NCBI GenBank assembly: GCA_041737595.1
Contig: JBGSRK010000010.1
Location: forward strand, 117,375 to 181,374
Direction: 5' to 3'
Source of the DNA: Patescibacteria group bacterium
GTDB taxonomy: Bacteria; Patescibacteriota; CPR2; UBA1875
Length of the DNA: 64,000 nucleotides
A model generated the notes under the pieces. It was not told the origin of the DNA and ran no database searches. It worked only from the letters and a program-made list of their open reading frames with translations. The position numbers and the translations under genes are program-made. Shown piece after piece: positions 29,827-61,649 of the stretch. The stretch's first letter is position 1. Each line of letters starts with the position of its first letter.

Positions 29827-29919
29827 TGGCGGTGAGGGAGAGATTCGAACTCTCGCGCCGGATTACTCCGACCTACAGGTTTAGCAAACCCGCCCCTTCA
29901 GCCTCTTGGGTACCTCACC
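29827..29919 (-). tRNA. tRNA-Ser (anticodon GCU), CCA encoded
   Basis: Reverse complement GGTGAGGTACCCAAGAGGCTGAAGGGGCGGGTTTGCTAAACCTGTAGGTCGGAGTAATCCGGCGCGAGAGTTCGAATCTCTCCCTCACCGCCA. It folds as a cloverleaf with a long variable arm and a T-loop TTCGAAT. Confidence 0.85.
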
Positions 29920-30212
29920 TCGTCAGCGTAAGCTGACGAGCTTCAAAATCTTTTTATAAAAAATTTCTATGCTCTTTCGCTACGCTTCCTCTGCAGTTGA
30001 AATCGACAGATTTCAACTGGAAAGAAACAGCTTAAGCCATTTAAATCTCTTCCTTTAACTAATATGGCGGGGTAAAGATTCCCCTTCGCTCCAACTCAGG
30101 GTCCGGGTCACTGCACACCGAAAGCTCCAGGTTTTCGCTTTCTCTCGCTCCCTTCGAATCCCCTTTATCTACAATTATTTTTACGTTCTAGACAAGCTAG
30201 ATCGTAAAAATA
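29920..30212 (-). ncRNA. Candidate structured ncRNA between the two tRNA-Ser genes (5' part tmRNA-like); identity unresolved
   Basis: The stretch has no ORF, is GC-elevated, and has perfect hairpins at 29920..29940 (9 bp) and 29994..30019 (11 bp). The - strand at about 30165..30120 reads GGGGAUUCGAAGGGAGCGAGAGAAAGCGAAAACCUGG, which resembles the conserved tmRNA 5' region GGAUUCGACGGGA...GCGAAACCC. I could not find a canonical GGGG acceptor 5' end or a T-arm/CCA 3' end. Confidence 0.25.
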
Positions 30213-30302
30213 TGGCGGAGAGGGAGGGATTCGAACCCCCGGTACCCTTGCGGGTACAACAGTTTTCAAGACTGCCGCAATCGACCACTCTGCCACCTCT
30301 CC
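30213..30302 (-). tRNA. tRNA-Ser (anticodon UGA), CCA encoded
   Basis: Reverse complement GGAGAGGTGGCAGAGTGGTCGATTGCGGCAGTCTTGAAAACTGTTGTACCCGCAAGGGTACCGGGGGTTCGAATCCCTCCCTCTCCGCCA. Confidence 0.85.
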
Positions 30303-30359
30303 AGGTCTAAAACTACAAAAGAGCTTGCTATCGCTCCTTTACTGATTAATCTGTTTTTC

Positions 30360-30435
30360 TGGTGAGCCCGGTGCGACTCGAACGCACGACCAATTGCTTA
30401 AAAGGCAACTGCTCTACCAACTGAGCTACGGGCCC
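30360..30435 (-). tRNA. tRNA-Lys (anticodon UUU), CCA encoded
   Basis: Reverse complement GGGCCCGTAGCTCAGTTGGTAGAGCAGTTGCCTTTTAAGCAATTGGTCGTGCGTTCGAGTCGCACCGGGCTCACCA. Confidence 0.85.
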
Positions 30436-30506: not shown

Positions 30507-32120
30507 ATGCAGGAGGGTACACAAAAAGATATACGGTCAGTTGTTTCTTCATATAACCGAGATGAAATAGAGAAAGCGACTGAAGAACAAGCAAAGGAAT
30601 TGAAGATTCCTTATTATGATGTTAGAAAATCTGAAATCGCAACCGATATTCTTTCATTAATAAATAAAGAAGAAGCTCAAAGAGGAGTTATTCCGATTAT
30701 GTTGAAGAATAAATCTTTGAGTCTTGGAGTTACTGATGTTCGCGAAGATAAGATCCAAGATATTATTAGTTATTTAAAAAATAGTTTTAATATTAATAAA
30801 GTATTAATTTCTTGGGCATCTGTTAAAGATATTCTCCCAAGATACGATGGGTTAATAAAAAGAAATCTTGAAGAAAAAGAAGATTATGAGATCACCGCAA
30901 CTGAAGGAATATTAACTTTTTCTGAATTAGAAAGCCAAATAAATTCTGCACCACTCCAAAATATTTTAAGCTTTATTGTTTCTTCGGCTATTTCTTCTAA
31001 TGCCTCTGATATACACCTAGAACCTCAAAAAGAGGGGGCAAGAATTAGATTCCGAGTTGATGGAGTACTACATGTTGTTGGTACTATGGGTGAGGAGAGA
31101 TTTAAATATATTTTATCTCAAATAGAACTTTCTGGTGGGATGAAGCTTAATGTAGATGAAGCTCAAGAAGGAAGAATTGAGATAAAAATGGCTAAAAAAA
31201 ATATCAGTGTTCGTATTGAAACAATGCCAACACTTTATGGCGATGATATTTCTTTGCGTATTTTTAATACAGAGTCAACTTTGCTGAATCTTTCAGATTT
31301 AGGGTTATATGATTATAATTTAAAATTAATTAATAATTCACTAGCCAGACCCCAAGGAATGATTTTGGTTGTTGGACCAACTGGAGCAGGAAAAACCTCG
31401 ACAATTTATGCGGTATTAAATGTACTAAATAAACCAGAAGTAAAAATTATTACCCTCGAAGACCCAATTGAATATGCTCTAACTGGAATTACTCAAAGTC
31501 AAATACATGAAGATGAGAGCTTTAATATAAGGCTTAAAGCTGTTTTAAGGGAAGACCCAGATATTGTTATGGTTGGAGAAATTAGAGATGCTGAAACAGC
31601 CGATGTAGCACTCCACGCAGCATTAACTGGCCATGTTATGATATCAACCTTTCACGCCTACAACGCCGCAACAGCGGTTACATTACTCAGGGAGATTGCA
31701 ACTAATGGAACATTACTAGCTTCTGCAATAAATTTAATAATTGCTCAGAGATTAGTTAGAAGAATTTGTGAAAAATGTAAAATAGAAAAAAAATTGACTG
31801 AAAAAGAATACCAATATGCTGCAGATTTGTTTGATGAAATACCTGATGAAATAAAAGGTGAAAGAAAATTATCATTCTTTGAGGGCAAAGGTTGTGAAGA
31901 ATGTAAGGGGATCGGATATAAAGGTAGAATTGCTATTCATGAAATGCTACAAATGAATGTTGAATTTCAAAAAGTTGTCGCAAGAGAAGATATAACTGTT
32001 AGTGAAATCCAAGAAGCGGCAAAAAAATCTGGAATGGTTACTATGGAACAAGATGGGCTCTTAAAAGCAATTGATGGGATTACATCACTTTCAGAAGTAA
32101 TGAAGGCAATAAAAGAATAA
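30507..32120 (+). CDS. GspE/PilB-family secretion/pilus assembly ATPase
   Basis: 537 aa. Walker A VVGPTGAGKTS, ITLEDPIEY, a His box, and the C-terminal tetracysteine CEKC...CEEC motif of PilB/GspE are all present. Confidence 0.8.
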   Translation: MQEGTQKDIRSVVSSYNRDEIEKATEEQAKELKIPYYDVRKSEIATDILSLINKEEAQRGVIPIMLKNKSLSLGVTDVREDKIQDIISYLKNSFNINKVLISWASVKDILPRYDGLIKRNLEEKEDYEITATEGILTFSELESQINSAPLQNILSFIVSSAISSNASDIHLEPQKEGARIRFRVDGVLHVVGTMGEERFKYILSQIELSGGMKLNVDEAQEGRIEIKMAKKNISVRIETMPTLYGDDISLRIFNTESTLLNLSDLGLYDYNLKLINNSLARPQGMILVVGPTGAGKTSTIYAVLNVLNKPEVKIITLEDPIEYALTGITQSQIHEDESFNIRLKAVLREDPDIVMVGEIRDAETADVALHAALTGHVMISTFHAYNAATAVTLLREIATNGTLLASAINLIIAQRLVRRICEKCKIEKKLTEKEYQYAADLFDEIPDEIKGERKLSFFEGKGCEECKGIGYKGRIAIHEMLQMNVEFQKVVAREDITVSEIQEAAKKSGMVTMEQDGLLKAIDGITSLSEVMKAIKE

Positions 32121-40751: not shown

Positions 40752-41524
40752 ATAAAGTAAAAATAGCAATATTTGATTTAACAGACTGTGAAGGATGTGA
40801 ATTACAGTTTATCGCGCTAAGAGAAAAATTGTTAAAAAGAGGTAATGATTTTGAGATAACAAACTGGAGATTGGCAAATGAAATTAATTCTAATGGTCCA
40901 TTTGATGTTACTTTTATTGAGGGTTCCCCGATAGCAGAAACAGACATTGAGACATTAAAACAAGCAAGAAAAATGTCAAAGATTATTATTACTCTGGGAG
41001 CTTGCGCCGATCTTGGTGGTATGCAATCAGCTCTTCTAGAAAAAAAGAGAGAAAGAGACCTATTAGAAGTTTATGGTCCTAAATATAAAACAAATTCACT
41101 CCCTCCAAAGCCTGTTTCTTATTATGTTGATGTGGATTTACATTTGCCCGGTTGCCCTGTCAACGAAGAAGAGCTTGAAAGGCTTCTTTCTTCACTTTTT
41201 ATTGGCAAAAAGTTTTCGCCTAAAAATCATTCGGTTTGTCTCGACTGTAAGGTTGCTGGTAACCCTTGTTTATTTTTAGATGAAGGTTTTTGTTTGGGCC
41301 CCGTCACTCGAGGTGGATGCAAAGCTCCTTGCCCAGCCAATGGAATTCGTTGCTTTGGTTGTTTTGGTCCAATAGAGGCTGCTAATTTACCTGCTCTAAA
41401 AAGTGCGGGCGAAAAACATAATTCGGTTGAAAATATAGATAATACTTTAAGTTTGTTTTTTTCAAAGCAAGATGTGTATAAAGAATATAAAATATCACAG
41501 AAAAAGGGGAAAAATGTCTCATAA
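40748..41524 (+). CDS. hydD: [NiFe]-hydrogenase small (delta) subunit
   Basis: 258 aa with CEGCELQF...GACADLGGMQ...C, the Nuo 20-kDa / hydrogenase small subunit pattern. Confidence 0.75.
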   Translation: MNKVKIAIFDLTDCEGCELQFIALREKLLKRGNDFEITNWRLANEINSNGPFDVTFIEGSPIAETDIETLKQARKMSKIIITLGACADLGGMQSALLEKKRERDLLEVYGPKYKTNSLPPKPVSYYVDVDLHLPGCPVNEEELERLLSSLFIGKKFSPKNHSVCLDCKVAGNPCLFLDEGFCLGPVTRGGCKAPCPANGIRCFGCFGPIEAANLPALKSAGEKHNSVENIDNTLSLFFSKQDVYKEYKISQKKGKNVS

Positions 41525-42770
41525 TACATTAAGCCAATTCATTTCAAAAATTGAAGGGCATGGTAAATTAAAATATAATATCGCTGAATCATGTGTGAGT
41601 GTCAACATTGATGAAGGGGAGAGGCTCTTTGAACGACTAGTAATTGGTAGGAGTTATACTGAGCTTGCATTTATTACTGCAAGAATTTGCGGAGTTTGCC
41701 CAACAGCACATGCTATTGCCGCCACAAGAGCCATAGAAGATGCTTTTGGAGTTGATCTTAATGATAAAATAAATAGTTTAAGGTATGCAATTGAGGCAGG
41801 ACAAATTATACAGTCTCATGCTCTACATTTATTTTTTCTTGCTCTCCCTGATTATATTAAAGTCCAGAATGGTCTAGAATTACATGAAAAAGATCCTGGA
41901 TTATTCAAAATCGCAAGCGAACTAAAGTCTGCAGGAGATGAGGTTATAAAAGTAATTGGAGGAAGAGCTATCCATCCATTAACACCTACTGTTGGGGGAT
42001 TTACAAAAGTCCCAACCAAAAAAGAAATTGAAAAACTTATTATTAAAATAAGATCCGCCCAAAGACTTGCAATAGAAACTCTTGAAATTTTTGCCGGGCT
42101 AAAATATCCACATTTAAATAAAAAGGAAGAATATTTTTCTTTAACAAAAAATGGTTTTGTAGATATTTTAGGAGACAAATTAATGTCTACAGAGGGAGTA
42201 GAATCTGATGTTAAAAGTTATCAATATGTAATTAAAGAAATAGTTAAAAAGAACTGTACTGCAAAACATGCGCTTCATGACGGACATGGGTTTATTGTGG
42301 GAGCAACTGCCCGCGTTAATCTTATGAGCGAAGATGATTTCAACCCAAAAACTCAAAAAGCCCTAAAGATGTTGAAAATCAAACTTCCTATCACAAACAG
42401 CTTTAAAAATAACCTAGCTCAAGCAATCGAAATCTTACATTTTTGCGAAGAAATAGAAAAACAACTGACAAGCTTTATTTGGAGTAAAGATGAAAGAACT
42501 AAAGTTGGGTATAAGATTAAGGCTGGGGTTGGAGTTGGAGCAACTGAAGCCCCTAGAGGGACTTTATTCCATATGTATGAATTTGATGAAAAAGGGATTG
42601 TTATTAATTGCGATATTATCACTCCTACAGTCCAAAACCTTACCAGCCTGGAAGATGATGCTAATGAGTATTTGAAACAAAATAAATCTGTCTCTATCCC
42701 AAGACGACAAAAAGAACTTGAAATGCTAATTCGGGCATATGACCCCTGTATTACTTGTAGTGTCCATTAA
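41514..42770 (+). CDS. hydA: [NiFe]-hydrogenase large (alpha) subunit
   Basis: N-terminal RICGVCPTAH and C-terminal DPCITCSVH are the Ni-binding CxxC motifs. I take the start at MSHNTL (41514), overlapping the hydD stop, rather than the table's 41472. Confidence 0.85.
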   Translation: MSHNTLSQFISKIEGHGKLKYNIAESCVSVNIDEGERLFERLVIGRSYTELAFITARICGVCPTAHAIAATRAIEDAFGVDLNDKINSLRYAIEAGQIIQSHALHLFFLALPDYIKVQNGLELHEKDPGLFKIASELKSAGDEVIKVIGGRAIHPLTPTVGGFTKVPTKKEIEKLIIKIRSAQRLAIETLEIFAGLKYPHLNKKEEYFSLTKNGFVDILGDKLMSTEGVESDVKSYQYVIKEIVKKNCTAKHALHDGHGFIVGATARVNLMSEDDFNPKTQKALKMLKIKLPITNSFKNNLAQAIEILHFCEEIEKQLTSFIWSKDERTKVGYKIKAGVGVGATEAPRGTLFHMYEFDEKGIVINCDIITPTVQNLTSLEDDANEYLKQNKSVSIPRRQKELEMLIRAYDPCITCSVH

Positions 42771-43660: not shown

Positions 43661-43736
43661 TGGTGGGCCCGGTAGGATTCGAACCTACGACCAATCAGTT
43701 ATGAGCCGACTGCTCTAACCACTGAGCTACGGGCCC
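43661..43736 (-). tRNA. tRNA-Met (anticodon CAU; elongator Met or Ile2-type)
   Basis: Reverse complement GGGCCCGTAGCTCAGTGGTTAGAGCAGTCGGCTCATAACTGATTGGTCGTAGGTTCGAATCCTACCGGGCCCACCA. The acceptor stem is fully paired. Confidence 0.8.
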
Positions 43737-47506: not shown

Positions 47507-48607
47507 ATGAAAATATCTTGTTTACAAGAAAATCTAAATAAAGGGGTAACAACTGTTTCTAGGCTTGTTTCTATTAAAGGAACATTAGAAATACTTTCAC
47601 ATATTTTAATATCTACAGAGAATGGAAGATTAAAATTATCAGCTACTAATTTAGAAATGGGAATAAATTATAAAGTTGGTGCAAAAATTGAAAAAGAAGG
47701 TTCAATAACCGTACCAGCAAAACTTTTTTCTGAATTAATTTCACAATTACCATTAGGAAAAATTGATTTAGAAGAAAAAGATGAAACTTTATATGCAAAA
47801 ATTGATGGATTTAACTCTCAAATAAAAGGTTTATCTTCAGAAGAATTTCCTTTGATTCCAAAAATTAAAGAGAAAAAAATCATTTCAGTAACAGCTGGTG
47901 AACTTAAAGATGCAATCCAGATGGTTTTCTTTTCTGCTGCACCTGATGAAACAAGGCCAGTGCTTTCTGGTATTTATTTTAAAGTTGAAAAATTAAAAAT
48001 TTATTTAGCTTCTACAGATTCTTATAGATTATCTGAAAAAATAATTAATTTAAAAGAAAAAGAAACTTCTATAAAAGAAATTATTATTCCTGCAAAAACA
48101 ATGATTGAATTATCACGTGTTTTAGATGACCCTGAAAAAATAGTTAATATATATATAAATGAAACACAAATAATGTTTGAAACAGATGATTTTGAAATAA
48201 CATCAAGATTAATAGAAGGTAAATTCCCGGATTATAAACAAATTATACCGACCGGAGCAGAAACAAAAGCAGTTTTAGATAAAGATAAATTTTTAAGTGT
48301 TATAAAAGTAGCATCACTTTTTTCTAGAGATACTGCTGGTAGTATTACTTTAAATTTTTCAACAAAAGGAAAAATAGAAGTAATTGCTTCTGGTTCTCAA
48401 TATGGTGAAACAGATTCAACTTGTGATGCCGAAGTAACTGGAAAAGATTCTGACATTATATTTAATAGTAAATATATATTAGATGTCTTAAATAATTTAC
48501 CATCAGGGAATATTACACTTGAAATATCAGGTAAATTAAACCCGGGTGTACTAAAAAAAGAAGGCGACAAAGATTACACATATGTGATTATGCCTCTAAG
48601 GGCTTAA
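47507..48607 (+). CDS. dnaN: DNA polymerase III beta sliding clamp
   Basis: 366 aa with a three-domain clamp pattern (MKISCLQENLNKGV...). Strong RBS aaggagattaaATG. Confidence 0.9.
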   Translation: MKISCLQENLNKGVTTVSRLVSIKGTLEILSHILISTENGRLKLSATNLEMGINYKVGAKIEKEGSITVPAKLFSELISQLPLGKIDLEEKDETLYAKIDGFNSQIKGLSSEEFPLIPKIKEKKIISVTAGELKDAIQMVFFSAAPDETRPVLSGIYFKVEKLKIYLASTDSYRLSEKIINLKEKETSIKEIIIPAKTMIELSRVLDDPEKIVNIYINETQIMFETDDFEITSRLIEGKFPDYKQIIPTGAETKAVLDKDKFLSVIKVASLFSRDTAGSITLNFSTKGKIEVIASGSQYGETDSTCDAEVTGKDSDIIFNSKYILDVLNNLPSGNITLEISGKLNPGVLKKEGDKDYTYVIMPLRA

Positions 48608-48608
48608 A

Positions 48609-49688
48609 TTGAAAATTAAAGAAATTAAACTTACTAATTTTCGTAATTGGGAAGAAGATTCTTTTAATTTTTCTGATAGAGTTTTAATTTATGGTCCAAA
48701 TGCACAAGGGAAAACAAATATACTAGAAGCACTCTATTTAATTGCAACAACCAGTTCTTTTAGAGGCAGGGATGCAGAAGTTATTACAAAAGATAAAGAC
48801 TTTATGCGTCTTTGCGCTAAAATTGAAAAAGAAAAGGAAATAGAAGTTAGTGCGGTTTACCAAAAAATCGAAAATGGAATACAAAAAGAATTTGTAATAA
48901 ATAATAAAAAGAGGCCTTCTATAGATTTTGTTGGAGAATTTTCAGCAATTATTTTTTCACCAGAAGATATTGCCTTAATTTCTGGAACCCCGGAAATTAA
49001 AAGAAGATATCTTTCTTTTACAATAGGACAAAAGGATAGAGAATACCTTTATGATCTTTTGAATTATAAAAAAGTATTAAGACAACGGAACGATTTATTA
49101 AAACGCTGGGACATAGGAATAATAAGAGCAGAAATAGATATTTGGGATATAAAACTTGCTGAATATGGCCAAAATATAATTATAAAAAGAAAAGAATTAG
49201 AAGAATTCATTAATACAAAAATAAGTTATTATTATCGTGAAATATCCAGAGAAGATAAAGAAATAAAATTTATTTATGAACCATCACTAGAAAAAGATGA
49301 TCTACTCAAATCATTAACAGAGAATAGAGAACGGGACATAAGAGAAAAATCCACCACAAACGGTCCACACCGCGACAGCTGGACGATTACCATCAATGGA
49401 GTATCATCGGCCAAATTTGCATCTAGAGGTGAAGCCAGGACCGTTATACTGGCTCTTAAATTATGTGAAAGAGATTGGTTCTTAGAAAAAGGCGGGGATG
49501 AGCCGGTTATACTCTTGGACGATGTTTTTTCTGAGCTTGATGAAGATCGTAGAAAATATCTGGTTGATGCTTTCTTGGGTTCACAACTTATTATCACAAC
49601 AACAGACCTAGAACATTTAGATAAAGAATTTATTTCAGAAACTCAATTAATTAATATTAAAAAAGAAGAACCCTTTATTATTTCTTAA
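48609..49688 (+). CDS. recF: DNA replication and repair protein RecF
   Basis: 359 aa with Walker A GPNAQGKTNILEA, an SMC-like signature, and LLDDVFSELD. Confidence 0.9.
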   Translation: MKIKEIKLTNFRNWEEDSFNFSDRVLIYGPNAQGKTNILEALYLIATTSSFRGRDAEVITKDKDFMRLCAKIEKEKEIEVSAVYQKIENGIQKEFVINNKKRPSIDFVGEFSAIIFSPEDIALISGTPEIKRRYLSFTIGQKDREYLYDLLNYKKVLRQRNDLLKRWDIGIIRAEIDIWDIKLAEYGQNIIIKRKELEEFINTKISYYYREISREDKEIKFIYEPSLEKDDLLKSLTENRERDIREKSTTNGPHRDSWTITINGVSSAKFASRGEARTVILALKLCERDWFLEKGGDEPVILLDDVFSELDEDRRKYLVDAFLGSQLIITTTDLEHLDKEFISETQLINIKKEEPFIIS

Positions 49689-49708: not shown

Positions 49709-49975
49709 ATGGGTAATTTAGGAAATATATTAAAAAACAAAATAGAAGAACTTGGAATTTCAAAACAAGTTGAAGCGGTTGATATTGTAGAGCGCGCAAC
49801 TAAAGAAATTGCAAAATTTATTCCAGCAGAAGACTTTGAAGTTGTTAGTTTTAATAAGGGAATAATAAAAATAGCAGTAAAATCATCTTCAGTAGCCAAT
49901 GAAATATTATTTTTAAAACCAAAAATTATTATTTTAAAAACTAATAAGCTTAAAATAAATCAAATAAACCATTAA
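49709..49975 (+). CDS. DUF721 (DciA-like) small protein following recF
   Basis: 88 aa. Its position after recF and its pattern (..QVEAVDIVERA...VVSFNKGIIKIAVKSSSVANEI) fit DUF721. Confidence 0.45.
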   Translation: MGNLGNILKNKIEELGISKQVEAVDIVERATKEIAKFIPAEDFEVVSFNKGIIKIAVKSSSVANEILFLKPKIIILKTNKLKINQINH

Positions 49976-50661
49976 ACTGGTACTTCACTGATAATTACAT
50001 TTTCTGGATTAGCCCCAACAGATGTGAGCCAGTCTTTTATTAGTTCATTTATTACAGAAATAGGTTTTTTGTTTGAATATTGGACCTGAATCTCGGTTGT
50101 ACCATTACGATTTTCAAATGCATGTACGATAGTAAAAAAATCTTTTTCTATTGGAATATCTTTAACAAATTCGAACCCTTCCACATAGCCTTCTTCGAAT
50201 TGGTCAGTTCTTTCTGTGTCTAACCTTTCTAGATAGGGGCTTATTTCATCTAAATTATTTAACTCTCTTGTTATAAATAATATTTCTAGACCCCTCCCCT
50301 TTATACCAGTAATACCAATCGGGAATATTAGTAATTTGTATTCCGTATTAGGAAAAAGTTTTTGGCCCTCTTTACTCTTAATTTTTAATATTTTCCCATC
50401 AGAAAAGCCAATAAGTTCATTTTTAACACCAATTTTATCTGAAAATAATTGAATATTATTAATTTGATTAGAGTTTATTTTTTTACTAAAAGTTAGATTA
50501 ATATTGGGCTCAAGTGAAACATTCTTACTCCCATTTTCTGGTTCGACAGCCACGATTTTTGGCGGAGAAATATATACAACAACTCCAACAATAATAACCC
50601 AAAACAATAAAGCCAAAACCGCTATAAGTATAAATTTATTATTTTTATAAGAATCATTCAT
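49972..50661 (-). CDS. Membrane-anchored protein with Ig-like domain (possible VirB8-like component of the adjacent T4SS module)
   Basis: 229 aa with an N-terminal TM and PKIVAVEPENGSKNVSLEPNINLTF, a bacterial Ig-like segment. The stop abuts the CHAP gene start. Confidence 0.35.
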   Translation of the reverse strand: MNDSYKNNKFILIAVLALLFWVIIVGVVVYISPPKIVAVEPENGSKNVSLEPNINLTFSKKINSNQINNIQLFSDKIGVKNELIGFSDGKILKIKSKEGQKLFPNTEYKLLIFPIGITGIKGRGLEILFITRELNNLDEISPYLERLDTERTDQFEEGYVEGFEFVKDIPIEKDFFTIVHAFENRNGTTEIQVQYSNKKPISVINELIKDWLTSVGANPENVIISEVPV

Positions 50662-51768
50662 TTAATACCTCGTTAAACTGCCGACATTTGTCCACCTGCT
50701 GCGTCCATAGTCTCTATAACTATTTTTTTCTACACATGTTCCAGAATTTCCCTCTATAGTATAAAGGGTTGTCCCAACAATTTTCCAAACAATTCCCACA
50801 TGACCCGTTCCACCGCTTCTTGGAGCATAAACAATATCTCCTGCCTGCGGGACTACAACATCTATATCATATTCATATGGCATTGATTTATAAGAAAGAA
50901 GTGCACCACAAGTTTTGGGAATATTAGAGCCAGCTTTATTATACACCCAACTGACAAAGGCAGCACACCAAGGTGCTCCACAGGCGCAACCTGCATATAA
51001 TTGATATTTACATACTGGGCCATAATTTTGTTGACTGCCAGTACCGCAAACCGGTAAATTTGCCTCTACCAGTGCAATATCAACAATCATCCCCTTTACG
51101 CCACTTGGACTGCCCGGAGTAGTTGGCGGCGCCACAACAGTTGGCGGCGCGGTTCCCCCTCCTACACCAGTCGGGACTGGACTCCCAATAAATCCAATAA
51201 TTCCCGAGACAACAAACCCGACTAAAATTAAAACAAGAATAATCGCGATAACTACTAAAATCGCCCAACCAATGGGATTACTAACTAAAAAAGCAATAGC
51301 GCCTCCACCCTCTGTTGCAGCTGTAGCTGTTTCTGCCGCTTCAACAGCAACTTCTGTTGCTTCTAGGGCTGCTTCTGCTGCTTCGGCAGCTTCTGCTATC
51401 TCACCAGCCTCACCCCCTAATTCACCAAGCTCACCAGCCTCACCTAACTCTCCTGTTTCTCCTAGTTCACCGCCCTCAGCTCCTTCACCGCCCTCAGGTC
51501 CTTCATTAGTTTCATTAGATTCAGAATTTTTTTCTTTATCATTTTCGGTTTCATTTTTTTCTTTATCTTCTTTATCTTCTTTTTTGTCTTCCTTGTTGTC
51601 CTCTTTTTCTTTTTTCTCTCTTTCGTTGTCATTGTCCCGATCATCATCATCATCTTCTTCATCATCATCATCAAATTCATCATCAAATTCATCATCCTCA
51701 AAATCATCTAAATAATCTTTATCTGGGTCAAAGTCTGGATCATAAAAATTTGGGCTAGCCTGTGCCAT
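50662..51768 (-). CDS. CHAP-domain peptidoglycan hydrolase with acidic low-complexity N-terminus and TM anchor (VirB1/PrgK-like)
   Basis: 368 aa. A D/E-rich N-terminus and (G-E-[LA]) repeats precede TM IAFLVSNPIGWAILVVIAIILVLILVGFVV. The C-terminal CHAP domain has Cys (CGAPWCAAFVSWVY) and His (GHVGIV). Confidence 0.7.
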   Translation of the reverse strand: MAQASPNFYDPDFDPDKDYLDDFEDDEFDDEFDDDDEEDDDDDRDNDNEREKKEKEDNKEDKKEDKEDKEKNETENDKEKNSESNETNEGPEGGEGAEGGELGETGELGEAGELGELGGEAGEIAEAAEAAEAALEATEVAVEAAETATAATEGGGAIAFLVSNPIGWAILVVIAIILVLILVGFVVSGIIGFIGSPVPTGVGGGTAPPTVVAPPTTPGSPSGVKGMIVDIALVEANLPVCGTGSQQNYGPVCKYQLYAGCACGAPWCAAFVSWVYNKAGSNIPKTCGALLSYKSMPYEYDIDVVVPQAGDIVYAPRSGGTGHVGIVWKIVGTTLYTIEGNSGTCVEKNSYRDYGRSRWTNVGSLTRY

Positions 51769-53536
51769 TATTGCTTTCCTCTAATCTGTTTAATTGTTCA
51801 GGGTTTGTTGTAATTAATATATCCTCTGCATAAGACGGAGTTATTTCAATCGCAGCATGATCTTGTCCTGCAAAAAACAATCCTTCGCCGACTTCACAAT
51901 TAAGTAAGAAAAATTTTTCTGCTTGAGTTAAGTTAAAAGCCTCTACAACCATGTCAACTGCAGACGGATGTTGTTTTAATAAAATACTCATTGATGAATT
52001 ACTAATAATAGCTTTGCCATAATTAGAACCCAAAAAATCTTCTACATCTTGGACTATAGTTGTTATTCCTAAATAATACTTTCTTGCTCTTTTTGCCATA
52101 GAAAAAAGAAATTGAGCTGAATCTCGATATTTCATTAATATCCAAGCTTCATCAACCGCTAAAATCCTTTTTTTACGAGAACCTTTTATTCTATTCCAAA
52201 TAAAGTTTAAAACCATATACATTACCATTGGCCTTAGTTCGTCCTCAAGGTCTCGTATAGAGAAAACAATAAATCTATTATCAAGGCTTATATTTGATCT
52301 TCTATTAAAAATACCAGCAAAAGTTCCACTAACAAATTTACTTAAAGATGAGTTTAGTGTTTCAGCTCCTTTTAAGGATGAAAGTATTTTTATTAAATCA
52401 TCCATAATAGGGGGTTCTAGCCCGTGGGTAGATGGGTCTTTTGTGATACCCCTTGATGCATAACATTGAACTAGGGCTTGATCTAGCAGATTATCTTCAA
52501 CGGGCGATATTTTCCCTCCAGCCATTATTCTTAACAATCCATGTAAAAGAATAATATTTGATCTTAAGCTATTACCTGCATCTTCTGGATCATCTGGGTC
52601 TACCACCGGTAAATCAAATGGGTTAATAACATATTCAGAATTAATATTTAAGTTTAGATATGAACCTCCCACTGCCTTACAAAGCCGTTCATATTCGTTT
52701 TCTGGATCTATTACAAGTACTTCTGTCCCGGTTATCAAATATCTTAAGAGTTCTAGTTTTACCGAATAACTTTTCCCAGAGCCAGACTTTGCGAGTATTA
52801 CAGAATTTGCATTTTCCAAACCAAAACGATCAAAGAATATAAGCCCATTTGTGTGCTTATTTAAGCCATAAAGTATCCCATCATTTCTAGACATATTACT
52901 TGAAGCAAATGGGAAAAATGTTGAAAGTGCACCAGTATCAAGATTTTTTGAAACCATTAAGTCATCTTTACCATAAGGGAAAGAGACATTTAGCCCTTGT
53001 TCTTGTTGGAAAATAGCAGGCTTCATCATAATTAAGGACCCACCTAAAAGATTTTCTAGTACCTTTGTTAATGATTCTAGCTCTTCTTTAGATGAAGCAA
53101 AAATTGTGAAGTACAAAGATGCTTTAAATAATTTTGCTTCACCTCTTTGGAGTGAATCTCTAAGATCTTCTACATCAAAATGAGCCGTTTCTAAAAGAGG
53201 ATCACGAACCTTACCTTTTACCTGATTCTCATAAACTTGAGATTCGATTTGAGCAGATTTGTTTCTTAATTTTTTTAAAGTATCTTGTGTTTCAACAGGA
53301 TAAATAAACAAAGAAGTATTAAGTGAAAAATCTATATTAACAACAGGTGAAAGCCAATCGGTGTATAGAACTCTTGGGTAAGCATAAACAAAAAAAGTTC
53401 TTACATAATATGTTCCAAGTTGGATATAACTTGATTCAACCGAAATTGCTGAAGGGGAAATAATATCTATTATTGATGTTCCTCCTTCACTTATTATTTT
53501 TTGATCATTGTTTTTATTATTATTAAAAATGTTCAT
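51755..53536 (-). CDS. VirB4/TrsE/PrgJ-like type IV secretion ATPase, C-terminal two-thirds
   Basis: 593 aa with YVRTFFVYAYPRVL, Walker A AKSGSGKSYS, Walker B ILAVDEAW, and a C-terminal VirB4 motif. Confidence 0.85.
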   Translation of the reverse strand: MNIFNNNKNNDQKIISEGGTSIIDIISPSAISVESSYIQLGTYYVRTFFVYAYPRVLYTDWLSPVVNIDFSLNTSLFIYPVETQDTLKKLRNKSAQIESQVYENQVKGKVRDPLLETAHFDVEDLRDSLQRGEAKLFKASLYFTIFASSKEELESLTKVLENLLGGSLIMMKPAIFQQEQGLNVSFPYGKDDLMVSKNLDTGALSTFFPFASSNMSRNDGILYGLNKHTNGLIFFDRFGLENANSVILAKSGSGKSYSVKLELLRYLITGTEVLVIDPENEYERLCKAVGGSYLNLNINSEYVINPFDLPVVDPDDPEDAGNSLRSNIILLHGLLRIMAGGKISPVEDNLLDQALVQCYASRGITKDPSTHGLEPPIMDDLIKILSSLKGAETLNSSLSKFVSGTFAGIFNRRSNISLDNRFIVFSIRDLEDELRPMVMYMVLNFIWNRIKGSRKKRILAVDEAWILMKYRDSAQFLFSMAKRARKYYLGITTIVQDVEDFLGSNYGKAIISNSSMSILLKQHPSAVDMVVEAFNLTQAEKFFLLNCEVGEGLFFAGQDHAAIEITPSYAEDILITTNPEQLNRLEESNNGTG

Positions 53537-53539
53537 TTT

Positions 53540-54196
53540 TTATTTTCCTGTAACCATGTCACCGCTTATGGAATTTATGGCATTCCCAATCTTAATATTT
53601 GTTGCAATATCGGGGTTGTAAAGAATATAAATTAAATCTGCAATTTGTTCAGTATTTAATACTTTTCCCGTAAGTCCCATAGACGTTACTCCATTAACAA
53701 TTTGTTCTATTCTGGCCATTAAACCTTTTTTATTTTCCTCAAATTCAGACATGGGGTTTGTTTTTGAACCAAAAAACCCACCTTTATTTAAATTAACAGG
53801 GTAAAAAGACACAACTATATAAAACTCCTTATCCATAATATTTGCCTGTGTAAGTAACATTTCTATAAATGTTTTATATTCTTCTGCCTGGATTTTTATA
53901 AAGGGGCTTTGCTCAGCTCCAATTATTGTTTCTAACTTAGTTAAATAATCAGTTAAATCTAATTTTCTTGAAACAGAAAGTATTTGAATTGGGAATTCTA
54001 TTGAATTTAAAAAGGATTGGTATGCATAAGAAACAGATTCTTTTTCCGTTTCACTTTTTAAAGATAAATTAATCGAAGAAATAGAAACAATAGAACGGAG
54101 ACTTCCGTCCTTCATAATTATTACACCCTCCTTAATATCCTTTATTGGGACAATATTTTGGCTAGGTGCAGAAGATTTTTTATTCCCCTGTGACAT
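53540..54196 (-). CDS. VirB4-like N-terminal domain encoded as a separate ORF (split gene or pseudogene fragment)
   Basis: 218 aa. IVPIKDIKEGVIIMKDGSLRSIVSISSINLSLKSETEKESVSYAYQSFLNSIEFPIQI is the typical N-terminus of Gram-positive VirB4 homologs. It is separated from the ATPase ORF by a single TAA. Confidence 0.6.
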   Translation of the reverse strand: MSQGNKKSSAPSQNIVPIKDIKEGVIIMKDGSLRSIVSISSINLSLKSETEKESVSYAYQSFLNSIEFPIQILSVSRKLDLTDYLTKLETIIGAEQSPFIKIQAEEYKTFIEMLLTQANIMDKEFYIVVSFYPVNLNKGGFFGSKTNPMSEFEENKKGLMARIEQIVNGVTSMGLTGKVLNTEQIADLIYILYNPDIATNIKIGNAINSISGDMVTGK

Positions 54197-54234
54197 ATAA
54201 TAAGTTTAACAGATTATCGCACTTGTTTTAATAT

Positions 54235-54828
54235 CTAATTTCTTCGTCTTCTTTTAATTTCAATTTGAGGATTGTCAAAATTTTGTTTTGGAGATACGCT
54301 AGCAAGCTGCGAAAGAAGGGGTTCGGCATCTTTTTTTGAATTAACAGTACTGTTAATTGTACTATCTAAAAAACTATTTTTTTCCATTATTGGGTCCGGG
54401 GCTCCCGGATAATCAAAATTAGATTTATCAGAAACCCTAGCTGCGTTTTTTAATTTCTCCTGTATTTGTTCTAGACTTTCTCGTTTAACGGCTCGAGGAG
54501 TTTCTTCTCTTTTGTTCGGTTCTGTTTGTTCTATTTTTTCAGCCTCTCTTTTCCAAACCATTTTACGAGGATTAATGTATGAACCAATAGCATCAATAAT
54601 AATTTTTTCTAGGTGTTGACCGCCATAATCAAAAAAAGCTAATCCAAGTGCTCCTGCAATAATTATCATAGAAAAAAGATAAAAGAAAAATCTAATGGGC
54701 CCGTATAGTGCAAAATTTAATACAATAATTAGTCCAACCCCAATTAAGATTATAATAAATTGCCTAAGCGTTAATGGCCCGACAACCTTATCTTCTATAT
54801 CTATATTTTGTGGGACTTTGTATTCCAT
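54235..54828 (-). CDS. VirB3/PrgI-like small membrane protein
   Basis: 197 aa with two N-terminal TM helices after LTLRQFIIILIGVGL. It is positioned between the VirB6-like and VirB4 genes. Confidence 0.5.
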   Translation of the reverse strand: MEYKVPQNIDIEDKVVGPLTLRQFIIILIGVGLIIVLNFALYGPIRFFFYLFSMIIIAGALGLAFFDYGGQHLEKIIIDAIGSYINPRKMVWKREAEKIEQTEPNKREETPRAVKRESLEQIQEKLKNAARVSDKSNFDYPGAPDPIMEKNSFLDSTINSTVNSKKDAEPLLSQLASVSPKQNFDNPQIEIKRRRRN

Positions 54829-54840
54829 AATATTAAAATA

Positions 54841-56751
54841 TTATTTAAACTTAGGGTCATTAATTGTGTCTTGACTAGTACCGGGTCCCATTGAGGCTGC
54901 CATTTTAGACCTTGCTTCTCTGCTATCATTTGTAGCACGTTCACTCCAATTGCGCGCATTCTTTGGATCTGCAAAATAATCTACATAATGGTTTTGAGCT
55001 TCTGCGGCCCATTGTTGTTCACCATCCCAATTGCCCGCAGCATCAATAACGTCTGCCATTTTGCCAGACATATTAATAGGGTTAACCTTGTCAATCTCTG
55101 CCTTAGCCATTTTGCGGGCATTTCTAATGGTTTTTGCTTGAGCTGCAACTGTTCCACCTTCGCCCTCCATTGCAGTTAATTGAGCTTCTGACATATTTAT
55201 TCTTGCACTTTGATCAGTGTCTTTGGCAATATCAAGTGCATAATCTTTTACCATAGAAGATAGCCCTGCACTGTGGCCGTTTTTTAATAACATATTCCTT
55301 AAATCGCCATTTTCTGGTCCTTTTAATGCGGCCGGGTTATCTTTGTGAACTAATCTTAATAGTGCTATTTCTTCATTCTCACTTAAATTACCCTTCCTAA
55401 GAAGTTCAACCATTTCCTCATAACCCTTACCTTCATGTATTTCTGAAAATGCACCTTGCTGTTGCTGATTAAATCTATTTTGAGCGCTCTTATCTTCTTC
55501 TGTCCCAATAAGTTTATCAAGCCCCAATAATCTTCTCCCAAGTGGATTATTTTCATTGGCAAGCATTCTACCGGTCTTGGCGCGTCGAAGCGTTCTATTG
55601 CGAGCTGCTTTATCTTTCCATCCTTGAGACATCAATCCTAGTCCGGATTTATCAGATGCGTAACCAAGCGCCGCCCCCTTGGCCACCCCACCTATTTTTG
55701 AAAGAACTCCCCCAATTCCAGCCGTAACTGCCCCTCCGTTTTTTATTGGAATAGCAAATGCCATAAAAAATGCAACACAAAGCATCAAAGAAGCCATTAT
55801 AAAGTCATTTATCCCAGAAAATGCCATTATCGCCGAACCAATAAATAAAATAGCCATAATTTGGATTCCCATAAGACCCCACTTAAAAAATTCAGACCAC
55901 CACTTTTTGTATAAACTTTCAGTGAAAGGCAAAAGATTTGCAAGAGCCGCTAACGGTGAAATTACAATTAATAGATAAAGCATAAAAACTCTTACTCCCA
56001 GAAGAATCCAAAGCCCAATTGCAGGGAAAAGTATGATTATAGAAACGATTACGGCTAGCACAAGATTAATAACTGCCGTCGCAGTCCCAATTCCGGAAGT
56101 TGCAGCTACCCCCATATCTCTAAATGGTTTATACCAATCCCCGCCAGGGATAACAACATTATATATATTATCCACTAACATGTTTTCTATAGCACTAAAA
56201 AAACCAAGCAAGAAATCCGCAATAGCATAACTGAAAAGAGCTAAAAATAGAGTAACGACTAATTTTGGTATAATCTTCCCTAGCCCATATTTATCTCTTT
56301 GAAGGTTTAAGATATTCATTACGGCAATAATGATTATTGCTACTGAAAGTAGCCCTAATCCCAAATCTCTAAAATGAGTCCAAACTCGCTCCATGCTTCC
56401 ACTGTAAGTTGGGCTATAGGTAAGATTATTTCCCCAATCAAGAGCAGTTTTTATTGCAAAAATACAAAAACTAGAAACCCCGCCAAGTATCGCCCTACCA
56501 ATATCGGTAATAAAATTATTAATCAGCCCTGTGATACATAGTGACCATTGCCAAGGGAGAAGACTACCGCATTCTGGTGGGGTTGTGGTTGGGATTGGGG
56601 TGGGTGGAGTATATGTTGGGACGGTGTATGTTGGTGAAGCTCCTCCTCCAGGGCCAACAGAAGCAGCTCTCAAACTAACAGGAATAAATAAGCTCTGGGA
56701 CATAAATAGCGCCAGAGTCAAACTGATAATTATTTTTTTAAACACCCTCAT
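54841..56751 (-). CDS. VirB6/TrbL-like polytopic membrane protein with Pro/Thr-rich N-terminal stalk
   Basis: 636 aa with a signal peptide, PTYTVPTYTPPTPIPTTTPP, more than 6 TM helices, and a hydrophilic C-terminal 250-aa domain. Confidence 0.5.
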   Translation of the reverse strand: MRVFKKIIISLTLALFMSQSLFIPVSLRAASVGPGGGASPTYTVPTYTPPTPIPTTTPPECGSLLPWQWSLCITGLINNFITDIGRAILGGVSSFCIFAIKTALDWGNNLTYSPTYSGSMERVWTHFRDLGLGLLSVAIIIIAVMNILNLQRDKYGLGKIIPKLVVTLFLALFSYAIADFLLGFFSAIENMLVDNIYNVVIPGGDWYKPFRDMGVAATSGIGTATAVINLVLAVIVSIIILFPAIGLWILLGVRVFMLYLLIVISPLAALANLLPFTESLYKKWWSEFFKWGLMGIQIMAILFIGSAIMAFSGINDFIMASLMLCVAFFMAFAIPIKNGGAVTAGIGGVLSKIGGVAKGAALGYASDKSGLGLMSQGWKDKAARNRTLRRAKTGRMLANENNPLGRRLLGLDKLIGTEEDKSAQNRFNQQQQGAFSEIHEGKGYEEMVELLRKGNLSENEEIALLRLVHKDNPAALKGPENGDLRNMLLKNGHSAGLSSMVKDYALDIAKDTDQSARINMSEAQLTAMEGEGGTVAAQAKTIRNARKMAKAEIDKVNPINMSGKMADVIDAAGNWDGEQQWAAEAQNHYVDYFADPKNARNWSERATNDSREARSKMAASMGPGTSQDTINDPKFK

Positions 56752-56831
56752 AACTCTATTATATATTTAAGTTGTTATTACGCAATAAAAAAAATACCAA
56801 ATAACTTTAGTATTTTTTTATTTTTTAAAAT

Positions 56832-57143
56832 TTACGCAGTGGCGATTGTTTTTGCCCAGTTTAAGATAACAAGAGCCAAAACAACAACAATTACACCGAT
56901 GACTGCATTTAAGATAGCTGTTCTTGCTTCAGACGCTTTTCCAGAATCTCCTTGAGCTAAAATATATTTAACACCTGCATATACTATATATGCAACTGCA
57001 ATAGCTCCAACAAACCAAAGAATATATTCAAATATTCTTATAATTGTTGCCTTTGGGTCTCCTGCACCACTGGCTAGAGTGATGTTTAAGTCACCTGAAC
57101 TGATTGCAATCTTAGTCCCCATGGCTAATAATTTTTCGTTCAT
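56832..57143 (-). CDS. VirB2/TrbC-like pilin paralog 4
   Basis: 103 aa. Two hydrophobic helices flank GDSGKASEAR. Paralog of the three genes upstream. Confidence 0.45.
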   Translation of the reverse strand: MNEKLLAMGTKIAISSGDLNITLASGAGDPKATIIRIFEYILWFVGAIAVAYIVYAGVKYILAQGDSGKASEARTAILNAVIGVIVVVLALVILNWAKTIATA

Positions 57144-57194
57144 AATTCCTCCTTCTTAATAAATGATATTAATTTTATCTGAATAAGTCAACTT

Positions 57195-57509
57195 TTATAT
57201 TAATACTTCTCCCCAAAAACTAGATACCCAGTTTATAATTACAGCAGATATGCCGATTAAAACAACTCCAATTACAGATATTAAAATAATTTTTCTTGCT
57301 TCGGCAGCTTTCCCCGCGTCTCCTTCGGCCATAATATATTTAACCCCCCCATATATAATTGAACCAAGCCCAACCCCAACTAAAATAGGCACTAATAGGT
57401 TGTTTAAATATTTAAAAACCAAATCTTGAATACTACTACCTCCATACACGGCCGAACCTGGGAGAGTGACTGTAGCAAAATTAGTTATATTTTTTACATA
57501 TTTTTTCAT
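57195..57509 (-). CDS. VirB2/TrbC-like pilin paralog 3
   Basis: 104 aa with ...GGVKYIMAEGDAGKAAEARKIILISVIGVVLIG... Confidence 0.45.
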   Translation of the reverse strand: MKKYVKNITNFATVTLPGSAVYGGSSIQDLVFKYLNNLLVPILVGVGLGSIIYGGVKYIMAEGDAGKAAEARKIILISVIGVVLIGISAVIINWVSSFWGEVLI

Positions 57510-57513
57510 AATA

Positions 57514-57846
57514 TTAACTCGTGATACTTATAAATGTGCTAATAATAAATCCCGACGCAATAATTATTGAAAGTCCGACAAGAGAGGCGATTATTATTTT
57601 TCTCGCTTCAGTAACCTTATTTTGATCACCACCAGACATAAATAATTTGAATATACCCCAGAAAAACATTGAGACTGCTATTGCCCCAACAGCTCCAATT
57701 GCTATATTTTTTACTATGTTAACAAAAATAATTAAATCACTCGCGGTAGCGGGGTTTGGACCATTTAACCAACTAAAAATACCAGCTGCATTTACTGCTT
57801 TTGGTGTTATTAAATAATGAATTATTTCTATTAATGCCATATACAT
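57514..57846 (-). CDS. VirB2/TrbC-like pilin paralog 2
   Basis: 110 aa with ...FKLFMSGGDQNKVTEARKIIIASLVGLSIII... Confidence 0.45.
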   Translation of the reverse strand: MYMALIEIIHYLITPKAVNAAGIFSWLNGPNPATASDLIIFVNIVKNIAIGAVGAIAVSMFFWGIFKLFMSGGDQNKVTEARKIIIASLVGLSIIIASGFIISTFISITS

Positions 57847-58229
57847 GATGCCAGGGTATTTATCCCTAAAAAATTATAGATTAAAAAATAAGAAAATAAA
57901 AGCAACCCAAGGCCTGAAAGTACACCATAAATATACTCTTTTGCTTTGTCTATTTTATTTGTGTCACCAGCAGAAGTCATCCATAGATATCCAGCAAAAA
58001 TAAGTACAAGAGTAGCAACGGGGATTAAAAGTCCAGATATCCATTGCCAGACACTACAAATCCAACAATCATAATCCATAGAACCCGAAATACCACTACG
58101 ACATGATTCCCAGGGATCTCCCGGCGCAGCGAAAGCAATCTTTGCATAAAGGTTTAATAAGAAAGAGTATAATAATATTTTTTTCAATTTCATCTCTTTT
58201 ATAATATATAAGAAAAAATCTTTTCTCAA
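57831..58229 (-). CDS. VirB2/TrbC-like pilin paralog 1 with Cys-rich N-terminal extension
   Basis: 132 aa with a signal peptide ...AKIAFA/APGDP, five Cys in the N-terminal region, then ...MTSAGDTNKIDKAKEYIYGVLSGLG... Confidence 0.45.
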   Translation of the reverse strand: MRKDFFLYIIKEMKLKKILLYSFLLNLYAKIAFAAPGDPWESCRSGISGSMDYDCWICSVWQWISGLLIPVATLVLIFAGYLWMTSAGDTNKIDKAKEYIYGVLSGLGLLLFSYFLIYNFLGINTLASCIWH

Positions 58230-59436: not shown

Positions 59437-60471
59437 CTATTTTGTGGGGAAAAATTTATCTCGGATACTTTTTTCAATTTCATCAAAAGATTTTGGATTA
59501 TCACGAAGATATTGTTTAGCGGCTTCTCTCCCTTGGCCAATTTTTTCACCTTTATATTCATACCAAGAGCCAGCCTTAGAAACTATTTCCTCCCTTACAG
59601 CGAGATCTAACACGTCGGCTTGTCTAGAAATTCCTTCATTATACATGATGTCAAATTCAGCCGTTTTAAATGGTGGGGCTATTTTATTTTTAACCACCTT
59701 AACCTTAATATGATTTCCAATTACATTGTCACCATCTTTAATTTGTTCTGTTCTCCGAATATCCATTCTGACTGAAGAATAAAATTTAAGGGCGTTTCCA
59801 CCAGAAGTTGTTTCTGGGTTACCAAACATTACTCCAATTTTCATTCTTATTTGATTAATAAAAATAACAGTCGTGTTTGATTTAGATATAACTCCAGTTA
59901 GTTTTCTTAATGCTTGAGACATGAGTCTTGCTTGAAGCCCCATATGTGAATCACCCATCTCGCCTTCGATTTCAGCTCTTGGGACAAGTGCTGCAACAGA
60001 ATCAACAACCAAGACATCCATTGCATTTGAACGAACCAAAGTTTCTGCAATCTCTAGGGCCTGTTCACCGTTATCTGGTTGAGAGATAAGTAATTTTTCA
60101 ATATTTACACCGATATTTTTTGCATATTCCGGATCAAGAGCATGCTCTGCGTCAATAAAAGCAGCGAGCCCACCTCTTTTTTGAGCTTCAGCAATAATAT
60201 GATAAGCAAGTGTAGTTTTTCCTGAGGATTCAGGACCATATATTTCAACAATTCTTCCTTTTGGAACTCCTCCAGCCCCTAGGGCTATATCAAGTGACAG
60301 GGAACCGGTTGGTGTAGTTTGTACATTTAATTTTGTTGATTCGCCAAGGCGCATAATTGCACCTCGACCGAACTGTTTTTCAATTTGGTCAACAGCCATA
60401 TCAACTGCAGTTATTTTACCGGCTAATTCTTTTTCTTTCGCATCTTTTACGGATTTTTTTTCCTCTGGCAT
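59437..60471 (-). CDS. recA: Recombinase RecA
   Basis: 344 aa with Walker [10 protein letters not shown] and L1/L2 loops. Highly conserved. Confidence 0.95.
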
Positions 60472-60576
60472 CTTTCCCCCTTACGTCCAGCAAATCAATT
60501 ATTTATTGAATAGCTATTTACGTATTAATTATTTTATAATTACAAAACTTAAAACCTTTTTAATAATATTTTAAAC

Positions 60577-60972
60577 TTATATATGTTTAGTTCTTATGCT
60601 TACATTATAATGTTCTTTTGTCACTCTTTTGTCAAGCGAACGGATTCTCGAAACAACCATTTTATCAAGTAATGAAAGTCGATTTTCTGTTTGTTTATAC
60701 GAATAATAACTTATTGAATTACCACTATATAAAAGATCGAGATAATATCTTGCTTCAAAAATTGAATTTCTTACATCTGAAAAATATCTCATTTTATCTT
60801 CATCAAAATCTCTTGCTTGTCCTTCAAAAACTGCAACAGGAATTTTAGATACAATTTGACGTAAAGAAATAGCCGCACTTTTGTTTTTTTTAGCTCTTCC
60901 TGAGACTCTAAAAACTATCATTACAAGTTCGTGTGCTTTTTTCTTTAATTGTTGTTCTATATATTCTCTCAT
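60577..60972 (-). CDS. Four-helix-bundle protein (23S rRNA intervening-sequence protein family)
   Basis: 131 aa. KKAHELVMIVFRV...EARYYLDLLYS fits the PF05635 pattern. It lies between lexA and recA. Confidence 0.55.
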   Translation of the reverse strand: MREYIEQQLKKKAHELVMIVFRVSGRAKKNKSAAISLRQIVSKIPVAVFEGQARDFDEDKMRYFSDVRNSIFEARYYLDLLYSGNSISYYSYKQTENRLSLLDKMVVSRIRSLDKRVTKEHYNVSIRTKHI

Positions 60973-60993
60973 TTTAATTCCTAATTTATTAAT

Positions 60994-61620
60994 TTAACTA
61001 AAATTCTTTATTACCCCGATTACCTTACCTTGGATCATAAATGTGCCAAGTTTAGGGATGATTGATTTATGTTCTTTATTTGATGATACTGGTTCAAATA
61101 TTACTTTATTTTTATCAAGTCTTAATCTTTTTACTGTTGCTTCTGTCCCGATTAAAACAACCACTTTATCTCCTGGCAATCCTGAACTTTGTTTTCTAAA
61201 AACGATATAATCTCCATTATCAATCCCAGCCATATTCATTGAGTCTCCTTTTGCCCGTAACATAAATACGTCTTGAGTTTGTCCAACTAGTTTAGTTGAA
61301 ATTGGGATCCATTCTTCAATCATTTCTTCTGCCCAAATTGGCATCCCACAGGCAACATTCCCAACAAGCGGGACTTGAACCATTTCGTCTGGCGCCTTAC
61401 CTGTTTCATTAGAAACAACAATGATACCACGAGCTTTTCCTTCGATTTTTTTAATGAAACCTTTTGCCTCCAGAGAGCGTAAATGGGCAACAACTCCCAT
61501 TGGTGCAGCACAACCTATTTTAAGTTGCAGTTCTCGTACGGTAGGTGCCTGACCAGTTAAATTAATTGATTCTTTAATCCAGCCAAGGACTTTTTTCTGT
61601 TTTTCTGTTAATTGTTTCAT
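60994..61620 (-). CDS. lexA: LexA repressor
   Basis: N-terminal wHTH (LTEKQKKVLGWIKESINLTGQAPTVRELQ) and a C-terminal S24 peptidase with Ser (GDSMNMAGI) and Lys (VKRL). I take the start at MKQLTEKQ (61620) rather than the table's 61644. Confidence 0.85.
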   Translation of the reverse strand: MKQLTEKQKKVLGWIKESINLTGQAPTVRELQLKIGCAAPMGVVAHLRSLEAKGFIKKIEGKARGIIVVSNETGKAPDEMVQVPLVGNVACGMPIWAEEMIEEWIPISTKLVGQTQDVFMLRAKGDSMNMAGIDNGDYIVFRKQSSGLPGDKVVVLIGTEATVKRLRLDKNKVIFEPVSSNKEHKSIIPKLGTFMIQGKVIGVIKNFS

Positions 61621-61649
61621 ATAAGCACTCCCCTTGTATACCACTATTG

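Follow-up and report, generated by a model that had tools for sequence, protein, structure and literature searches.

TrsD is a remote homologue of the N-terminus of VirB4, the ATPase of type IV secretion systems (T4SSs), and in Patescibacteria it is usually encoded next to virB4 (Quinonero-Coronel et al. 2025, Microb Genom, PMC12102498). According to the same study, TrsD is the most abundant T4SS component of Patescibacteria (2,272 homologues, 1,664 of them associated with VirB4), is confined outside Patescibacteria to the pGO1-type MPF_FATA subclass, and is without an assigned function. The TrsD homologue of S. epibionticum is listed there as essential, and the one genetically tractable Saccharibacterium reportedly requires its T4SS for epibiotic life (both citing Wang et al. 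2023, Cell). T4SS clusters of Patescibacteria are often near dnaA (PMC12102498). Here we describe two adjacent open reading frames (ORFs), ORF-N and ORF-C, that encode a TrsD-like protein and a short VirB4 in a Patescibacteria group bacterium of the CPR2 lineage. They lie in a stretch of 64,000 nucleotides (nt), referred to as the window (assembly GCA_041737595.1, contig JBGSRK010000010.1, positions 117,375 to 181,374 of the forward strand). We conclude that they are almost certainly a genuine two-gene VirB4 arrangement.

In the R388 system, VirB3 wraps the N-terminal domain of VirB4 (TrwK residues 15-400), and the same domain mediates VirB4 dimerisation (PMC9259494). TrsD is not mentioned in the main text of Guglielmini et al. 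2014, and a 2025 FEMS review of T4SSs mentions neither TrsD nor a split VirB4. A full-text literature search on split or separate-polypeptide VirB4 returned nothing relevant, and the sole explicit statement that we found is that of Quinonero-Coronel et al. (PMC12102498).

Results

ORF-N and ORF-C share one frame on the minus strand and are separated by a single TAA, with a spacing of 3 nt. Read directly, the minus strand at the junction is ...GTT ACA GGA AAA TAA AAA ATG AAC ATT..., and the junction lies in an A-rich stretch, GGAAAATAAAAAATG. This bore out the coordinates, the shared frame and the TAA followed by AAA ATG that had been described in an initial annotation of the window. The same annotation had taken the 218-amino-acid (aa) ORF-N for the N-terminal module of VirB4 and the 593-aa ORF-C for the remainder with the Walker motifs, and profile searches agreed with both assignments (see below). 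In place of the single polypeptide of ~750-900 aa of the VirB4 family, the locus has one ORF of 218 aa and another of 593 aa, and their products are on record for the 190-kb source contig as separate proteins.

ORF-N and ORF-C tile a single VirB4. Against the NCBIfam profile VirB4_plasma, the match to ORF-N ended at profile position 281 and that to ORF-C began at position 276. Against the CD1110 profile, ORF-N covered positions 2-123 and ORF-C positions 176-729. When the two proteins were concatenated, tblastn gave one high-scoring segment pair (query 7-803, E = 6e-72) onto a single annotated 754-aa coding sequence of Carboxydocella plasmid pCCELLA01 (CP028515, CTH_10029). Aligned separately to this fused VirB4, ORF-N fell on residues 6-160 and ORF-C on residues 181-750. 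The VirB4-type N-terminal domain is collinear with the ATPase domain and is divided over the two ORFs. That two neighbouring ORFs match one protein family collinearly is not due to chance, and the predicted products together are one canonical VirB4, without overlap or duplication. From the profile coordinates, we infer that the cut falls inside the TrwK-equivalent N-terminal domain and not at the boundary between the N- and C-terminal domains.

The last ~24 residues of ORF-N (195-218) and the first ~18 residues of ORF-C (1-18) had no counterpart in the fused Carboxydocella protein. These junction tails argue against a recent nonsense mutation that split a fused virB4 gene and left a decaying T4SS, an explanation that would fit both the single in-frame stop, with only AAA ahead of the ATG, and the existence of fused VirB4s in Bacillota.

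The product of ORF-N resembles the N-terminal part of VirB4 in sequence profiles and in predicted structure. It matched the NCBIfam profiles VirB4_plasma (positions 97-281, E = 3e-12), CD1110 (positions 2-123) and VirB4_CagE (positions 3-143). The match to the TrsD/TraD profile NF041427 was limited to residues 13-89 (E = 2.1e-7, 31 bits, against a curated cut-off of 200 bits). A local Pfam profile scan assigned no family to ORF-N, and the Pfam family PF26593 (TraC-like) is a precomputed match for exactly this protein (P0001) and for all 83 homologues described below. No transmembrane (TM) segment was predicted, and the protein appears to be soluble; in the layout described for TrsD, too, a small soluble protein with homology to the N-terminus of VirB4 is encoded just before a short VirB4. 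An AlphaFold2 model of ORF-N had a mean predicted local distance difference test score (pLDDT) of 74, with disordered termini and disorder at residues 137-144. In a Foldseek search of the PDB with this model, all matches at E ≤ 0.01 were chains of R388 TrwK/VirB4 (14 chains; E = 8e-5 to 1.5e-3; probability 1.00). A sequence search of the PDB with ORF-N gave no match even at E = 10, and the connection to TrwK was made only through the structure-based search. Taken from these profiles and the model, the predicted protein is TrsD-like/TraC-like and is the counterpart of the ~180 N-terminal residues of a fused VirB4, that is, the first half of its N-terminal domain.

ORF-C encodes the remainder of VirB4, including the motor. 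It scored 360 bits against the NCBIfam profile conju_CD1110 (cut-off 325), over profile positions 176-729 of 752, and matched VirB4_plasma over positions 276-876. Pfam matches were P-loop_TraG, AAA_10 and DUF87. In searches of the PDB, ORF-C matched the crystallised C-terminal domain of VirB4 (4AG5, E = 3e-46), and its residues 244-542 matched TrwK 446-733. The P-loop ATPase C-terminal domain carries both a Walker A and a Walker B-like motif. By these matches, ORF-C is predicted to be a short VirB4, with the second half of the N-terminal domain (residues 1 to ~210) followed by the P-loop ATPase C-terminal domain.

The split was found in all relatives that were compared. A homologue search with ORF-N recovered 83 proteins, down to 33% identity, and the ATPase part was present in 0 of the 83. 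Most of them (81 of 83) are 123-245 aa long, and the other two, of 346 aa (P0055) and 373 aa (P0076), are far too short for a fusion. All hits with a named source come from Patescibacteria lineages. A scan of one genome per species, built from an alignment of the nine closest sequences, gave 498 or more stretches with a related coding sequence, and 80 loci (L001-L080) were fetched. The loci are from Saccharibacteria, Berkelbacteria, CPR2, Parcubacteria, and Kerfeld-, Andersen-, Uhr- and Nomurabacteria. Wherever the downstream DNA was long enough (77 loci), a homologue of ORF-C came after the small gene, and its frame relative to that of the small gene was 0, +1 and +2 in 10, 30 and 37 loci, respectively. 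In the nearest relative (64% identity; P0003, locus L085), the junction reads ...CAAAATGTTTAA..., with an 8-nt overlap and a different frame.

With no fused relative among 83 homologues or 77 loci, and with 67 of the 77 loci, including that of the nearest relative, out of frame, we consider a recent nonsense mutation to have next to no probability. More generally, relatives that are uniformly split and mostly out of frame exclude a nonsense mutation of recent date as well as conserved readthrough, and make an assembly error very unlikely.

The junctions of the relatives are typically tight. Among the 77 loci, the approximate spacings comprised 35 overlaps (mostly of 1, 4 or 8 nt), 28 gaps of 0-17 nt and 14 gaps of at least 40 nt. 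The recurrence of overlaps of 1 nt (TAATG), 4 nt (ATGA) and 8 nt indicates that, throughout the phylum, translation of the two genes is strongly coupled. At the other extreme, the gap between the small gene and the ATPase gene is 1389 nt in L031 and 413-464 nt in L011, L012 and L053. Gaps of several hundred bases to 1.4 kb leave room for an inserted gene and show that uncoupling is tolerated by the pair.

Two further features of the relatives were observed. In about a third of them, the N-module protein has an additional C-terminal tail that brings its length to 300-412 aa (for example in L010, L013, L014, L017, L022, L027, L033, with 412 aa, L053, L062 and L071; P0055 and P0076 are of the same type). 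In addition, the database labels of some loci with this Patescibacteria-type pair name other groups, 'uncultured Gammaproteobacteria' for L019 and L064 and 'archaeon' for L025, probably because the contigs, from metagenome-assembled genomes, were mis-binned or mislabelled.

The in-frame relation of ORF-N and ORF-C does not appear to reflect readthrough. Programmed readthrough of the TAA would give a fused VirB4 of ~811 aa, besides or in place of the two separate products. The two ORFs do lie in one frame with one stop between them, and in six relatives, too, one in-frame stop is all that separates the ORFs, at a gap of 0-12 nt. By chance, an in-frame relation is expected in one case out of three, and in-frame junctions were depleted among the relatives (10 of 77; binomial p = 8e-5). 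Such depletion is expected if overlaps between the stop of one gene and the start of the next are common; selection for readthrough would have had the contrary effect. TAA followed by A is the commonest terminator context in the window, no known case of TAA recoding could be adduced, and the ATPase gene has an ATG and a Shine-Dalgarno-like site of its own. We therefore regard programmed readthrough as extremely unlikely. The shared frame at this locus is, as judged from the loci compared, coincidental, and the same relation is found in 13% of the relatives.

The signals around the junction are ordinary for the window. Of the 49 long ORFs of the window, 21 are preceded by a Shine-Dalgarno-like 4-mer at a spacing of 4-12 nt (both genes that follow ORF-C in the operon are among them), and TAA is the stop codon of 39 of the 49. 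An alternative genetic code was considered and rejected: TAA ends most of the long ORFs, and translation table 11 gives long, uninterrupted ORFs throughout.

A sequencing or assembly error would be a further way to obtain the stop, and the A-rich junction is of a sequence type in which errors are more frequent. The Logan assembly of run SRR28170473, which was separately built, was identical to the contig over 3,921 nt, junction included. Furthermore, the split seen here is the norm of the whole clade, and no error is needed to account for it. We give an error of this kind almost no credence.

Based on these results, one of the four readings offered by the initial annotation stands, namely a genuine two-polypeptide VirB4; a nonsense mutation with decay of the T4SS, stop-codon readthrough and a sequencing error do not. 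Two checks that it had proposed gave clear outcomes: orthologues were uniformly split (77 of 77 loci, with 0 of 83 homologues fused), and the downstream ORF was found to have an independent start, with a Shine-Dalgarno-like AGGA 9 nt upstream of its own ATG.

Several points weigh against a two-gene VirB4 or soften the case for it. The Logan assembly may share reads, or the run itself, with the deposited contig, and the junction is known from assemblies. Start codons in the comparison of junctions were assigned by a first-ATG rule, which makes the gap sizes approximate and leaves the frame relations unaffected. The score of ORF-N is far under the TrsD cut-off, by which the predicted protein is a distant relative of staphylococcal TrsD and not a member of that subfamily. 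Finally, that both proteins are made and bind one another is a prediction from the genes.

Genomic context

The pair lies in a T4SS gene cluster in which all ORFs are intact (Table 1). The order in the minus-strand operon is four pilin genes, the gene for a 636-aa membrane protein, a PrgI-like gene, ORF-N, ORF-C, a CHAP gene and a Big_5 gene. That every other T4SS gene of the cluster is an intact ORF also argues against a nonsense mutation in a decaying system. VirB3-like and VirB6-like genes are present alongside the virB4 pair, the latter as a candidate. The 636-aa protein had no Pfam or NCBIfam match, and we infer from its position and hydrophobicity that it is VirB6-like. A gene for a protein of 656-669 aa is at the equivalent position in L085-L087, and a PrgI-like gene is at the equivalent position in L085 and in Bacillota plasmids.

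The PrgI/VirB3-like protein, about twice the length of the 91-position Pfam domain, has this domain and its two TM segments within the first ~90 residues, followed by a C-terminal extension of ~100 aa, and the orthologue in L085 is of comparable length (200 aa). The four divergent, tandem VirB2-like paralogues are unusual for a monoderm-type T4SS, and there are four in L086 too.

The cluster is chromosomal and is presumed to be at the replication origin. It is beside dnaA, and in L085 the gene order is equivalent, the cluster being likewise bordered by recA at one end and by SMC_N (recF-like) and dnaN genes at the other. The clustered virB4, TrsD-like, PrgI/VirB3 and VirB2-like pilin genes, the VirB6-like candidate and the nearby dnaA are the features of chromosomal T4SSs of Patescibacteria. 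No relaxase or type IV coupling protein domain was found among the 30 window ORFs that were scanned, and elsewhere in the window the genes are of the housekeeping type, among them those for DnaK, glycosyltransferases, a histidine kinase and a PilB-type ATPase. The locus is part of a chromosome and not of a mobile element. No rRNA or other Rfam family was found at threshold in the window, other than the tRNA genes in Table 1.

Table 1. Features of the window (positions in the 64,000-nt stretch)
Feature	Position	Strand	Description
ORF-N	54196..53540	-	218 aa, ends with TAA
ORF-C	53536..51755	-	593 aa, ATG start
Junction	53534..53542	-	TAA stop of ORF-N 53542..53540, AAA spacer 53539..53537, ATG of ORF-C 53536..53534
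Shine-Dalgarno-like AGGA	53546..53549	-	9 nt 5' of the ORF-C ATG, within the 3' end of ORF-N
Walker A AKSGSGKS	52769..52792	-	ORF-C aa 249-256
Walker B-like ILAVDE	52148..52165	-	ORF-C aa 458-463
PrgI/VirB3-like membrane protein	54235..54828	-	197 aa, Pfam PrgI E = 2.6e-13, TM 24-42 and 47-65; directly upstream of ORF-N
Polytopic membrane protein, VirB6-like candidate	54841..56751	-	636 aa, six to seven hydrophobic segments
Four tandem VirB2-like pilin genes	56832..58229	-	103, 104, 110 and 132 aa; Pfam T4SS_pilin/TrbC
CHAP cell-wall hydrolase (VirB1-like role)	50662..51768	-	Pfam CHAP and NLPC_P60; 14-nt overlap with the end of ORF-C
Big_5 (bacterial Ig-like) protein	49972..50661	-	229 aa, N-terminal hydrophobic segment; last gene of the cluster
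dnaA	45889-47238	+	beside the cluster (49972-58229)
dnaN	47507-48607	+	
recF-like gene	48609-49688	+	
Trp-repressor-like gene, recA, 23S-rRNA-IVP protein, lexA	59437-61644	-	other flank of the cluster
NiFe-hydrogenase large-subunit-like gene	41472-42770	+	
PilB-type T2SSE ATPase	30507-32120	+	
ORF with ABC ATPase domain and family-2 glycosyltransferase domain	12111-14090	-	659 aa
tRNA genes, four	29830-30435 (three clustered) and 43664-43736	-	

Discussion

The feature at this junction is neither a pseudogene nor an error; it is an old, deeply conserved trait of the ultra-small Patescibacteria, functional-looking, ordinary for the phylum and already described. The system that hosts it is an intact, chromosomal, origin-proximal T4SS of the Patescibacteria kind. 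The locus fits all the points made by Quinonero-Coronel et al., and the TrsD and VirB4 arrangement was already known from their work. What the present analysis adds is an explicit demonstration that a TrsD-like protein and a short VirB4 tile a fused VirB4. This collinear tiling supports the hypothesis that TrsD could be the detached first half of the N-terminal domain of VirB4.

We propose that the two genes are expressed as two polypeptides that act as one. Translation of ORF-N would end at an ordinary TAA, and ORF-C would initiate 3 nt further on, at its own ATG and with the AGGA upstream, probably by translational coupling. The close spacing, 3 nt here and overlaps in relatives, may couple translation such that synthesis is roughly equimolar. 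The two polypeptides would then associate non-covalently to form a complete VirB4 protomer, and such physical assembly is plausible. Because VirB3 wraps the N-terminal domain of VirB4 in R388, the small subunit is likely to contact the PrgI/VirB3-like protein that is encoded just upstream.

In the minority of lineages with one in-frame stop at the junction (the window and about six of the 77 relatives), low-level readthrough of the TAA might add to the two subunits a little fused VirB4, and this could seed or bias how the ATPase complex assembles. The fission might also, in a broader sense, be adaptive, with the VirB3-binding module and the motor made or assembled at different stoichiometries. 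We think that either possibility is very unlikely to hold.

A two-gene VirB4 has a consequence for annotation. A short VirB4 that follows an ORF of ~220 aa in Patescibacteria, or in some Bacillota elements, is not to be annotated as frameshifted or decaying. Given the reported essentiality of the T4SS and of a TrsD homologue (PMC12102498), an intact copy next to the origin fits a functional and important machine.

The locus can be compared with several known systems. R388 TrwK/VirB4 (PDB 7O41, 7O42, 8RTB) is matched by the model of ORF-N and by ORF-C; TrwK, in contrast, is one chain of 823 aa from a diderm system, with <15% identity to the N-module. The fused monoderm VirB4s (conju_CD1110 family, including Carboxydocella CTH_10029) have the same collinear order of N and C domains. 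The Carboxydocella protein differs in being a single polypeptide, at 26-27% identity, that is without the ~40 residues of the split-junction tails.

In TrsD/TrsE of the staphylococcal pGO1/pSK41-type MPF_FATA plasmids and in the trios of PrgI, N-module and DUF87 ATPase genes on Bacillota plasmids, both the gene order and the split are as here. Examples of the trio are found in Geobacillus, Clostridioides, Pontibacillus (with an 11-nt gene overlap) and Planococcus (a small gene annotated TrsD and a DUF87 ATPase). The Pontibacillus N and C proteins have 28% and 36% identity, respectively, to those of the window. The Bacillota N-module proteins are longer, at 274-344 aa versus 218 aa for ORF-N. 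The Bacillota systems are plasmid-borne, with the prototype pGO1 in a conjugation class, whereas the present system is chromosomal and next to dnaA.

The closest match is the TrsD and VirB4 pair of Patescibacteria. It is alike in the small protein beside a short virB4, in PrgI/VirB3, in a VirB6-like protein, in having several pilins and in its proximity to dnaA. We found no difference of substance, and the present locus is another instance of that pair, one whose junction is in frame by coincidence.

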